NCBI GenBank assembly: GCA_048593225.1
Contig: CM109174.1
Coordinates: forward strand, 125,619,754-125,683,753
Source: Sarcophilus harrisii
Lineage: Eukaryota
DNA: 64,000 bases
Direction of reading: 5' to 3'
Below, in pieces: positions 1 through 64,000 of the stretch. A model generated the notes under the pieces. That model searched no databases. It had not been told where the DNA came from and saw nothing but the letters and a program-made list of their open reading frames with translations. The translations under genes and the position numbers were made by a program. Each line of letters starts with the position of its first letter. Position 1 is the first letter of the stretch.

Positions 1-3000
1 CCCCTGCCCGTACCCGCTGCTCCAAAAGAGCCCGCCTCAGTGCCACTCTCTGTTCCAGCTCCCGTGCTTCACGCTCATGCTGACTCTCTGTCCGTATCTT
101 GATCTTGCTCTGATAGGCATTAAGCAGTTCCAGCTCCTGTTGCAACTGCTGTCGCAATGCCTGAAACTCTGACTCCTGGGTCTCATCCAGGCGAAGCTAG
201 GAGAGGGTAGGAGCTGGGGTCAAATGGCAAGGAAACACCTGATCCCCCACCCTGTGCTCAGAACCTTTTCCCTGCCCTGGGTTTCTCCCCACCTTCTCTC
301 CATGATTACTGAGGCATTCTGCCTCTAAAATTAGTCGAACTGTATCTCTCCCCCTCCCGCCCCCCTCCCAGCTCTGTATTGTTGCTGAGCCTTACTGCCT
401 GGGAGCTGAGCATCTCAGAGATGGACTGGTCATACTGTTCTGCTAGGATAGCCAGCTTTCGGGTCTGTTCCTCTTTAAGCCGCTTAAGGAGGCTCTTGTG
501 TTGGGCCTTGGGGGTGCCCTCCAGCAGGTGCCCCCGAAGGGCCTTGTACTGCCGAGTCTGGATCTTACATGTCTCCTGGAACTGCTTCTTGATCTGCAAC
601 TCCTTCGACTATGGAGTGGATGGGTTGAGTGGAGAGATGATGGGACGGGGCAAAGGAAGGGGGGGTAGGGAAGACAAGGAGGGAGAGGGAGAGACCAAAG
701 CAGACAGAGAGGGGAGAGAAACAGAAAACATGTTAGACAGAGAGGGGAAGCTAAACACAAAGAGAAGAGTATGAATTACACTGAACATAGAACAGAGCAG
801 AGAAAATACTACAAACGGTATCAGAAAGCATATGCATGGAGGTAGAGATGAATGTGAAAGCATGTGATGAAAGTAGAATGTGCACAAGACAGAGAACATG
901 CACATATAAGGAAACAAGTAACAGAATCACACAACACATGACTTGACAGGTGTGGAACCAGTGAAAAAGATAAAGCTTAGACAGAACACACAAGGACCAG
1001 AGCACTAAGGAGAAAGTCTTACAAATTGTGCCTTGGGGAAGGAAAAGTAAGCCAACTGGGAATTAGGAGAGAAGGGACGTGCTCTCCCAACATGGGGACT
1101 CGACCTAAAAGGAAGCAGCAGGGAATGGGACAAGAGATGGCAGTAGGGAATAGAAAGAGCCTTGGGCCCCGAGGGTGCAAGGACCAGGTGATTGATTGTG
1201 CAACTTTTGCCCTGACAATACTTTGGTTTTCCTTTTCTGGGCCACCTGTCACTCCCCTTGATGCATTCCATTTTTTCATCACCAGATCCATCTCTTTTTC
1301 AGCCCATTATCCCCAGCCTGTCCCAGAAGATCCATGCTTTATTTTTTATTTTGATGGCCCCCTATGGGGGGCTGGCTACCCTCCCCTTTGCCCCAGCCCT
1401 CAAGGGCCATGCCAGAATAAGGGAAGGGGAAAGTGGGCAGATTGGACAAGACTGTGGGTGGAGTGGAGAATGTGCATTGAAGGGGCAAGGCAGAATACAC
1501 AAAGGCACAAGATAGGATGACAAAGGCATCTGATGAATAGGTCCAGGTGGGATGATGGGAAGAATACCAAGCCTCAAGGGAATCCATGGCCTAGGGGCAA
1601 GGGAGCCAGTACCTCCCACATTCTGGTCCCTAAAACCGAATGCAAAACCAGGTGGGGCAAAGAACACTGCCAAGAGAGCAAAGCAAAAAGGACGAGGATC
1701 CAGGGAGAGGGACACAATGGAGATGGGAGTGAGGGGGACAGACAGTCATGGGGTGGGACAGGAAAGGGATGAAGTGGGCTCTGAGTTGGGCTCTGGGGGG
1801 TTACAGGGAAGGCTGAGGGGCGGCAGGACAAAGCAGACGGAGGCGGCGGCCTGAGCCAAGGGTATGGTTCCGCTCGAATGTTTTATTTATGTTTATCTTT
1901 CTTGGGGGTGGGGGGCAATTGAGGAGCAGGATTGGGGATGGAAGTAAGAAACAGAAAAATCAAATCAAAATCATATGAAAAAGTGACTACCCCTCCCAGC
2001 TAGCCCTGTCCCAAACCAGAGGGGACACCGCCCAGGCCCTGGAGAAGTAATGAGGGTGAGGATGAGGACACACACAATGGGAAGACACCAATAATTTAGG
2101 GGTGCTGGGGAGGGAACATAAATAAGTGTCACTTCCCAATTTAGTGGATAGGAAGGGCAAACTGTCTATGGGAACCCCTTCTACTGAAAGGGCTTTGGTT
2201 GTGGACAAAAGGACAGAACACACAAAGGAAGGGAAGGAATAAGGGCTGGGGAAGATCCTCCCCATGCCAGTGGGGTGGGAGATAAAGTGCATGTGCTCTC
2301 TGCCAGGGTGAATAGTGGGAAGCAATCATCTCCAAGGTGGCAAGGCTCGAGGCTGCCTATTTCGGAGACGATGGCTGGAGGTAGCCCCAGGAGGAACTCG
2401 AAGGGGGGCTGGGGGCCTTGGGCAGCGCTGACCGTGCCTCAGCAACCGAGGAATCCTACTTGGGCGTTCTCCCCGAAGCAACCCCCATCTGGCCAATGCC
2501 TGGGCAGCCCCAGGAGACAGGTGAGCAGCTAATCCCCTCCCAGCCCTAGCCAGTTGCCAGTTCCACCCTTTGTACAGGGCCCAAGCCTGGGCCAGTAAAG
2601 CTAAGGGATTTCGGGCCCGGTGTGGACGCCCACGGCGGGGTCCCAGGACTGGCAGCCGACTTCGGAAGCCATCCTTGTTCGTCTTAGGGTAGAGGGCAAA
2701 GAGGCCCCGGTCACCTACAGCCCCACAGCCCTGTAAGGTCCGGAAGGCTGATGGGGACAGGCGTAGTAGGACGCGCAGCCAGATCCTGGACAGTTCCCGC
2801 CGAAGCTTTGGGCCCTGTTGTCTTAACCAGCTGCCTCCAACTGCTACAGCTGCTAAGGGTAGGGCTAAGCCTGGCCAAGCTAAGAGCCAAGCAGCCCCAA
2901 GGCCTAGGGGCACCCCAGCAAGGCCCCTTAACCAACTCAGCCCTAGCACTGCTCCCAGGGCCACCCCCTGGGCTAAAAGCAGGAAAAAGCTGGGGGACAT

Positions 3001-64000: not shown

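Follow-up and report, generated by a model that had tools for sequence, protein, structure and literature searches.

In human 16p11.2, the gene set and the order in which it is tabulated match those described here for the Tasmanian devil, and a lncRNA, KCTD13-DT, lies between KCTD13 and TMEM219 (PMC11211608). The conserved gene order of 16p11.2 in mammals is already known and is well documented for mouse, where 16p11.2 and 7qF3 show conserved-order synteny (bioRxiv 10.1101/2022.05.12.491670). In zebrafish, kctd13, sez6l2 and asphd1 are also grouped, in a different order (PMC3484866). A literature search returned nothing specific on marsupial 16p11.2 synteny.

The stretch of DNA analysed here (the window) is 64 kb of Tasmanian devil (Sarcophilus harrisii) chromosome 1 and contains five genes, all previously annotated. 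Their spliced models are arranged in the order TAOK2(-), TMEM219(-), KCTD13(+), ASPHD1(-), SEZ6L2(+), as the preliminary description had proposed, with GT-AG at every CDS junction of all five models (Table 1). The window is very probably the ortholog of human SEZ6L2-ASPHD1-KCTD13-TMEM219-TAOK2, shown reversed, with its order kept by intact inheritance. Gene identities, species, order, orientation and collinearity are direct observations. In an exact-sequence look-up, four of the spliced models matched S. harrisii RefSeq proteins from end to end at 100% identity, and no difference from these four entries was found; SEZ6L2 has no exact match because it is truncated by the window, the ends of which cut SEZ6L2 and, in its beta isoform only, TAOK2. 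Exons were placed by exact-match mapping together with ungapped tblastn HSPs. Human KCTD13, TMEM219 and SEZ6L2 sequences served as guides for locating exons and never as evidence.

Table 1. Features of the 64-kb devil window (positions are those of the window).
Feature	Position	Strand	Description
TAOK2 coding region	9..10290	-	Exact exon map to S. harrisii isoform X3; alpha model identical to XP_031819336.1
CpG island	13151..14250		GC 0.63, CpG o/e 0.74; between TMEM219 3' end and TAOK2 coding exons
TMEM219 (IGFBP-3 receptor) CDS	14963..16954	-	4 exons, 246 aa, identical to XP_003762115.1
KCTD13-TMEM219 divergent intergenic gap	16955..44966		28.0 kb, AT-rich, TE-rich
(GGAG)n/(GA)n microsatellite	17467..17802		TRF; ~0.5 kb upstream of TMEM219 start codon
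Composite stretch	19440..28589		9.2 kb; in devil, absent from Sminthopsis ortholog (blastn collinearity gap)
L1 fragment	35860..37931	+	2.1 kb; absent from Antechinus ortholog (alignment gap)
CpG island	44401..45500		GC 0.66, o/e 0.80; covers KCTD13 5' end and exon 1
KCTD13 (BACURD1) CDS	44967..48914	+	6 exons, 340 aa, identical to XP_003762136.2
ASPHD1 CDS	50137..51349	-	3 exons, 319/319 identical to XP_003762113.1
CpG island	51651..53250		GC 0.69; fills ASPHD1-SEZ6L2 head-to-head intergenic region
SEZ6L2, first 12 coding exons	53588..64000	+	658 aa, GT-AG junctions, cut by window end

A marsupial origin had been suggested beforehand, and the protein comparisons sharpen it to the Tasmanian devil. 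For TAOK2 isoform X1, identity is 100% with the devil protein, 99.0% with that of Antechinus, 98.7% with Sminthopsis and 96.4% with wombat; for TMEM219 it is 100% with devil and 96.7% with Sminthopsis. The species match rests on this protein identity, not on DNA identity to a devil genomic record. At the DNA level the window is 84-94% identical to other dasyurid loci and 65-86% identical to opossum. A source outside the australidelphians, hinted at by a 68% TAOK2 match to a wombat UniRef entry, was rejected, the devil and wombat RefSeq proteins being 96.4% identical. Against the RefSeq protein of the wombat itself, the C-terminus of the wombat UniRef TAOK2 model reaches only 66% identity.

The alpha form of TAOK2 is complete in the window, with 1245 residues encoded by 15 coding exons (10290..2326, the last at 4089..2326), and equals XP_031819336.1 (isoform X1). 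In the beta form, a splice at 3850 leads to exons 608..396 and 196..9, and the model leaves the window at residue 871 of 1043; this partial model is identical to devil isoform X3 at 871/871 positions. The protein contains a Pfam Pkinase domain (214 bits). The CpG island upstream of the TAOK2 coding exons is presumed to hold the promoter and a non-coding first exon, a role assigned from position only. The four TMEM219 exons (16954..16790, 16702..16507, 15609..15368 and 15100..14963) encode a protein matching Pfam PF14940 (TMEM219) at 71 bits. Low-complexity ORFs that overlap one another at 17358-17860 stem from the microsatellite upstream of this gene's start codon.

KCTD13 is encoded by exons 44967..45243, 46498..46667, 47716..47805, 47890..47942, 48139..48334 and 48678..48914 and contains a Pfam BTB_2 domain; at 340 residues, the marsupial protein is longer than those of Pan and hamster (329 residues). 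It lies tail-to-tail with ASPHD1, the stop codons being 1.2 kb apart. The ASPHD1 exons (51349..50614, 50482..50369 and 50246..50137) encode an Asp_Arg_Hydrox domain (129 bits), and the marsupial protein (319 residues) is shorter than its eutherian counterparts (360-390 residues). The portion of SEZ6L2 within the window encodes a signal peptide, a Thr-rich N-terminal region, and CUB and Sushi domains. The N-terminal exon matches only SEZ6L2 fragments among 1.8 billion representatives searched.

The ASPHD1 and SEZ6L2 start codons (51349 and 53588) are separated by 2239 bp. The head-to-head layout recurs in 9/9 other loci examined, and in the devil a single CpG island is common to both genes. This island contains a conserved element (52884-52956) with an 18-mer, CAGGATCTGACGTGGGCT, at 52908-52925 that is invariant in 9/9 mammalian sequences examined and includes a CRE/UPRE-like TGACGTGG core. 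In having one CpG island, a head-to-head arrangement and a deeply conserved motif, ASPHD1/SEZ6L2 resembles bidirectional CpG-island pairs. Bidirectional promoters are usually defined by less than 1 kb between TSSs, whereas the 2.2-kb spacing of this pair is an ATG-to-ATG distance only. The literature search found no paper that describes a bidirectional promoter for ASPHD1 and SEZ6L2. The CpG islands at TAOK2, KCTD13 and the ASPHD1/SEZ6L2 5' region probably serve as promoters, and the invariant element may reflect some local regulatory constraint on the ASPHD1/SEZ6L2 pair. The window contains no match to the RE1/NRSF motif, and neither ncRNA genes nor SINE-type tRNA heads were detected when it was scanned in full with Rfam and for tRNAs. 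Beyond standard gene structure, with CpG-island promoters and alternative TAOK2 alpha/beta 3' ends, nothing is needed to account for the locus.

No gene was detected in the gap between KCTD13 and TMEM219. The 17-44 kb segment has a GC content of 0.33-0.43, and its earlier description as TE-rich is confirmed by an L1 ORF2 fragment and ERV gag/pro/pol domains. The composite stretch includes an L1 fragment at 19452-20344 and a degraded minus-strand ERV. Two segments of 88% identity, 21404-21551 and 27836-27983, bound the ERV and may be what is left of its LTRs. Pfam matches to the ERV comprise Gag_p24, zf-CCHC_5 (23.9 bits, under Pfam's 27-bit cut-off), RVP, RVT_1, RVT_thumb, RNase_H and Integrase_Zn. 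The second L1 fragment encodes a 417-residue ORF (36286-37539) that corresponds to about the C-terminal third of L1 ORF2p and matches residues 862-1264 of the human protein (E=1.7e-126). A tblastn search of the gap for a NUFIP2-like remnant gave no significant match; it followed from the observation that a NUFIP2-domain gene adjoins KCTD13 in a turtle. Its length is 28.0 kb in the devil against 21.2 kb in Sminthopsis. By blastn, the identity of the gap to other dasyurids (88-92%) does not exceed that of the genic parts (84-92%).

The layout of the SEZ6L2-ASPHD1-KCTD13 trio is identical in opossum, Antechinus, Sminthopsis, hamster, chimpanzee, bonobo, echidna and a turtle. In direct comparison the strands of the trio match those of chimpanzee, bonobo and hamster, and the placement of TMEM219-TAOK2 was taken from a literature table and from Sminthopsis, where TMEM219 and then TAOK2 lie in tandem on the same chromosome as KCTD13, with 21.2 kb between start codons. 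The human TMEM219-TAOK2 orientation we take to be that of the established annotation. Loci from Monodelphis, Antechinus and Sminthopsis align collinearly with the window at 65-94% DNA identity and have the same order and orientation; the devil differs from them in that its gap includes two additional stretches with TEs. Human 16p11.2 BP4-BP5 likewise has a large gap between KCTD13 and TMEM219, but the content of the devil gap consists of lineage-specific marsupial TEs. Flanking segmental duplications are not visible in the devil window, which therefore gives no grounds for expecting recurrent CNV in the devil. In a frog, TAOK2 adjoins CDIPT, and no TMEM219 was found within 10 kb upstream of TAOK2.

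Assembly error and paralogy were weighed as alternatives to an orthologous block. The 17-44 kb segment is rich in TEs, including several L1 copies of 70-81% mutual identity that could confuse an assembler, and chimerism of the contig had been named in the preliminary description as an outcome that would overturn it. A false join of TAOK2-TMEM219 to KCTD13-ASPHD1-SEZ6L2 through these repeats is nevertheless highly improbable. By blastn, Sminthopsis is collinear with the window over 5780-19439 and 28590-35546, and Antechinus over 33754-35859 and 37932-58562; the two, which are independent assemblies, overlap and together bridge the whole gap. Both halves also lie on one Sminthopsis chromosome, at the spacing given above, and the window has no N runs, so the contiguity of the locus stands. 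Still less credible is a paralogous segment of the SEZ6/TNFAIP1/TAOK1 or SEZ6L/ASPHD2 type in place of the 16p11.2 ortholog. Close vertebrate paralogues exist for all five genes except TMEM219, and some are themselves linked in human, at 17q11.2, 22q12 and 12q24. The exact RefSeq matches, however, are named TAO2, BACURD1, ASPHD1 and IGFBP-3 receptor. ASPHD1 is 77-83% identical to eutherian ASPHD1 and only 38-48% to ASPHD2, and the SEZ6L2 exons are 89-97% identical to named SEZ6L2 versus 52-57% to SEZ6. PDB rankings likewise favour TAO2 over TAO3 for the TAOK2 kinase domain (727 versus 604 bits) and BACURD1 (4UIJ) over KCTD10 for KCTD13 (220 versus 187 bits). The exact matches and the paralogue comparisons thus uphold the assignment to the named 16p11.2 genes.

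The orthology, order, orientation, marsupial origin and contiguity put forward in the preliminary description all hold. Its further proposal, that retention in a marsupial argues for a constrained and possibly co-regulated block, is not supported: such retention is the null expectation, the gap is neutral-like and conserved non-coding elements (CNEs) are few in the regions compared. For the lineage between the mammalian ancestor and human, Damas et al. (2022) reported 323 breakpoint regions and roughly 2 breakpoints/My (PMC9550189). Calculated from these rates, ~0.013 breakpoints are expected per 64-kb window along the human-devil path, and a block of this size is ~99% likely to be retained by default. 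Common descent alone predicts the same order, micro-synteny of this kind is no sign of special constraint, and we infer that retention of the five-gene order is neutral. On this neutral reading, the segment would have been inherited intact from the therian ancestor, leaving the five genes in their therian order and strands. The block is small, and its two tight junctions, the tail-to-tail one of 1.2 kb and the head-to-head one of 2.2 kb, leave a breakpoint very little room to fall without disrupting a gene. The 28-kb gap, the sole large intergenic space, behaves like neutral DNA and gathers lineage-specific retroelements.

Selection acting through common regulatory elements, on the whole block or at least on the SEZ6L2-ASPHD1-KCTD13 trio, would be the main alternative to neutral retention. 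The trio has the same layout from devil to turtle and its members remain together in zebrafish (PMC3484866), one CpG island is common to ASPHD1 and SEZ6L2, and the 18-mer within it is invariant in all nine mammalian sequences. We nevertheless consider this alternative unlikely. A small block is retained without selection at the breakpoint rates given above (PMC9550189), and the intergenic targets within the trio total 3.4 kb. The order is altered in a frog and in zebrafish, the gap tolerates large insertions (its length in dasyurids ranges between 21 and 28 kb), and no paper on a bidirectional promoter for ASPHD1 and SEZ6L2 came up in the literature search. CNEs spread through the block, a check proposed together with the constraint claim, were not seen when the devil was compared by blastn with chimpanzee, hamster, echidna and turtle, the eutherian loci spanning ~3.5-10 kb around the genes without the gap. 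Non-coding conservation between devil and eutherians consisted of the promoter element at 52884-52956 and two short pieces of the KCTD13 3'UTR only. Genomic regulatory blocks carry an array of CNEs; in the regions compared, the devil block has no such array. It is doubtful that selection has maintained the trio as a regulatory unit for more than 300 My, anchored by the ASPHD1/SEZ6L2 island, whose CAGGATCTGACGTGGGCT is invariant from monotremes to hominids. If it has, 16p11.2 dosage phenotypes ascribed to single genes might be due in part to the three genes being regulated jointly.

The devil reference genome already annotates this locus, which matters little beyond bookkeeping. Its use is as a negative example: micro-synteny over 64 kb in a marsupial is no evidence of constraint. 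Two points may interest 16p11.2 specialists, namely the mammal-invariant promoter motif upstream of SEZ6L2 and the neighbourhood of TAOK2 in a frog. The latter differs from that of mammals, which implies that the five-gene order arose between the tetrapod and mammalian ancestors.

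The window carries TAOK2 (−), TMEM219 (−), KCTD13 (+), ASPHD1 (−) and SEZ6L2 (+), in this order, on what we take to be devil chromosome 1. Order and strands agree exactly with the layout given in the preliminary description, and the marsupial origin stated there can be sharpened to Tasmanian devil, because four gene models match S. harrisii RefSeq sequences exactly. Exact-sequence look-up returned TAO2 isoform X1 (XP_031819336.1) for the TAOK2 alpha model, IGFBP-3 receptor (XP_003762115.1) for TMEM219, BACURD1 (XP_003762136.2) for KCTD13 and ASPHD1 (XP_003762113.1) for ASPHD1. 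The locus is already annotated and is therefore already known.

TAOK2 residues 1–871 map exactly onto S. harrisii isoform X3 with all junctions GT–AG; the later residues of X3 lie outside the window, past its start. The alpha isoform (1245 aa) results from read-through of the donor at 3850, with a stop at 2326. The KCTD13 and TMEM219 models contain six and four exons, respectively, which were located with human sequences used only as guides, the junctions being refined afterwards. ASPHD1 exon 1 is a 100% match to S. harrisii ASPHD1. For SEZ6L2, the named homologues at 89–97% identity are all SEZ6L2, compared with only 52–57% for SEZ6, and the N-terminal exon matches SEZ6L2 fragments only among 1.8 billion representatives searched. 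Ranking of PDB matches places BACURD1 above BACURD3 for KCTD13 and TAO2 above TAO3 for TAOK2. Orthology and synteny are supported.

TAOK2 X1 identity is 100% in devil, 99.0% in Antechinus, 98.7% in Sminthopsis and 96.4% in wombat; TMEM219 identity is 100% in devil and 96.7% in Sminthopsis. A 68% match of TAOK2 to a wombat UniRef model (A0A4X2KQC4) was rejected as an artefact of that entry, given the 96.4% for wombat RefSeq. In its C-terminal half, this entry and wombat's own RefSeq isoform X1 share only 66% identity; the model was probably projected or mis-built. It resembles unnamed ENA/Logan TAOK2 fragments, all ~66–70% identical to the devil exon, which we suspect to be eutherian in origin.

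The composition profile has three GC-rich peaks (~12–14, 44–46 and 50–54 kb) and a long AT-rich stretch at 18–44 kb. Vertebrate exon translations are recognisable on both strands. Raw ORFs contain pieces of protein kinase, BTB_2, Asp_Arg_Hydrox, Sushi, CUB, retroviral RNase H and integrase Pfam domains, and the complete gene models contain the expected domains. Rfam and tRNA scans of the window gave no matches. The 5′ end of TMEM219 lacks a CpG island; the other four genes have one.

Features and spacings in the window
Feature	Position	Strand	Length	Remarks
ASPHD1	51349..50614, 50482..50369, 50246..50137	−		3 exons; 319/319 identical to S. harrisii ASPHD1
SEZ6L2	53588..64000	+	658 aa	12 exons; all junctions GT–AG
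TMEM219 stop to TAOK2 ATG			4.7 kb	contains CpG island 13151–14250
TMEM219 ATG to KCTD13 ATG			28.0 kb	divergent
KCTD13 stop to ASPHD1 stop			1.2 kb	tail-to-tail
ASPHD1 ATG to SEZ6L2 ATG			2.2 kb	head-to-head; spans CpG island 51651–53250
Devil composite	19440–28589		9.2 kb	L1 piece and degraded minus-strand ERV; missing in Sminthopsis ortholog
Possible LTR remnants	21404–21551, 27836–27983			88% identical to each other
Tandem array	22066–22445		57 bp × 6.6	inside the composite
L1 fragment	35860–37931		2.1 kb	missing in Antechinus ortholog
Microsatellite	17467–17802			long (GGAG)n/(GA)n; close upstream of TMEM219
Perfect (GA)25	54449–54498			SEZ6L2 intron 1
Repeated segment	57975–58034		60 bp	SEZ6L2 intron
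Promoter-proximal block	52884–52956		73 bp	core 18-mer at 52908–52925

A chimeric contig, joined through the TE-rich 17–44 kb segment, had been named as one finding that would overturn this arrangement. In Sminthopsis crassicaudata, the KCTD13–ASPHD1–SEZ6L2 and TMEM219–TAOK2 loci share one chromosome, with the KCTD13 and TMEM219 start codons 21.2 kb apart. The Sminthopsis TMEM219–TAOK2 locus is collinear with 5780–19439 and 28590–35546, and the Antechinus locus with 33754–35859 and 37932–58562. These alignments overlap and span the entire gap, which rules out chimerism. Collinearity is broken only by two devil-only stretches, the composite and the L1 fragment. The composite's ERV retains gag p24, protease, RT, RT thumb, RNase H and integrase Zn domains, and a zinc knuckle match below Pfam's cut-off. 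The L1 fragment encodes an uninterrupted 417-aa ORF similar to the C-terminal third of L1 ORF2p (human residues 862–1264, E=1.7e-126). Several older L1 copies (70–81% identical) lie at 19.4–20.3, 36.9–37.9 and 40.7–43.1 kb.

The trio is arranged as SEZ6L2(−)/ASPHD1(+)/KCTD13(−) in opossum, Antechinus, Sminthopsis, Chinese hamster, chimpanzee and bonobo, in echidna (where KCTD13 exons are seen by blastn, with no gene called) and in the turtle Pangshura tecta. The five-gene mammalian arrangement is not matched in turtle, frog or zebrafish. Past the 5′ end of turtle KCTD13 lies a NUFIP2-domain gene (20584–21657 of that locus) rather than TMEM219. NUFIP2 adjoins TAOK1 in human 17q11.2, and these neighbours hint at an old paralogous KCTD–NUFIP2–TAOK linkage. 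In the devil gap, tblastn gave no significant hit to a NUFIP2-like remnant. In the frog Engystomops pustulosus (10001–41835 of its locus), a CDIPT-like gene (PF01066) comes next downstream of TAOK2, and the 10 kb upstream contain no detectable TMEM219; this amphibian thus does not share the mammalian surroundings of TAOK2. In zebrafish, kctd13, sez6l2 and asphd1 are clustered in a different order (PMC3484866). Conserved-order synteny with mouse 7qF3 is established over the whole CNV region (bioRxiv 10.1101/2022.05.12.491670). The 60-bp SEZ6L2 intron segment, presumably an ancient mammalian-wide interspersed repeat core, has at least nine scattered matches (76–82% identity) in the 21-kb echidna locus.

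The ASPHD1/SEZ6L2 CpG island contains the promoter-proximal block, with CAGGATCTGACGTGGGCT as its core. This 18-mer occurs only once in the window (0 of 100 shuffles reach one match) and does not vary among devil, opossum, echidna, hamster, Antechinus, Sminthopsis, chimpanzee and bonobo, where it stands 470–720 bp upstream of the SEZ6L2 ATG. The exact 18-mer was not found in the turtle locus. Within the 18-mer, the core TGACGTGG is putatively CRE/UPRE-like.

Retention of the block had been read as evidence for a constrained, possibly co-regulated organisation, an inference that is unsupported. On the path from the mammalian ancestor to human, Damas et al. 2022 find ~2 breakpoints/My and 323 breakpoint regions, with ~70% of synteny blocks common to all mammals studied (PMC9550189). 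At these rates, with a combined branch length of ~320 My and a genome of 3.2 Gb, we calculate ~0.013 expected breakpoints in 64 kb, a figure that excludes micro-rearrangements under the 300-kb resolution of that study; with tenfold more events, retention would still be ~88%. Among dasyurids, the gap is 88–92% identical and genic DNA 84–92%, so the two diverge alike, and the gap tolerates multi-kb insertions. Outside coding sequence, devil and eutherians share only the promoter block (73 bp) and, in the KCTD13 3′UTR, two short pieces, in a comparison with eutherian loci that covered ~3.5–10 kb around the genes and stopped short of the large gap. The intergenic target for breakpoints within the trio totals just 3.4 kb. 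Given the low breakpoint expectation, the divergence and insertions in the gap, the sparse non-coding conservation and the small trio target, retention of this gene order in the devil is not an argument for constraint.
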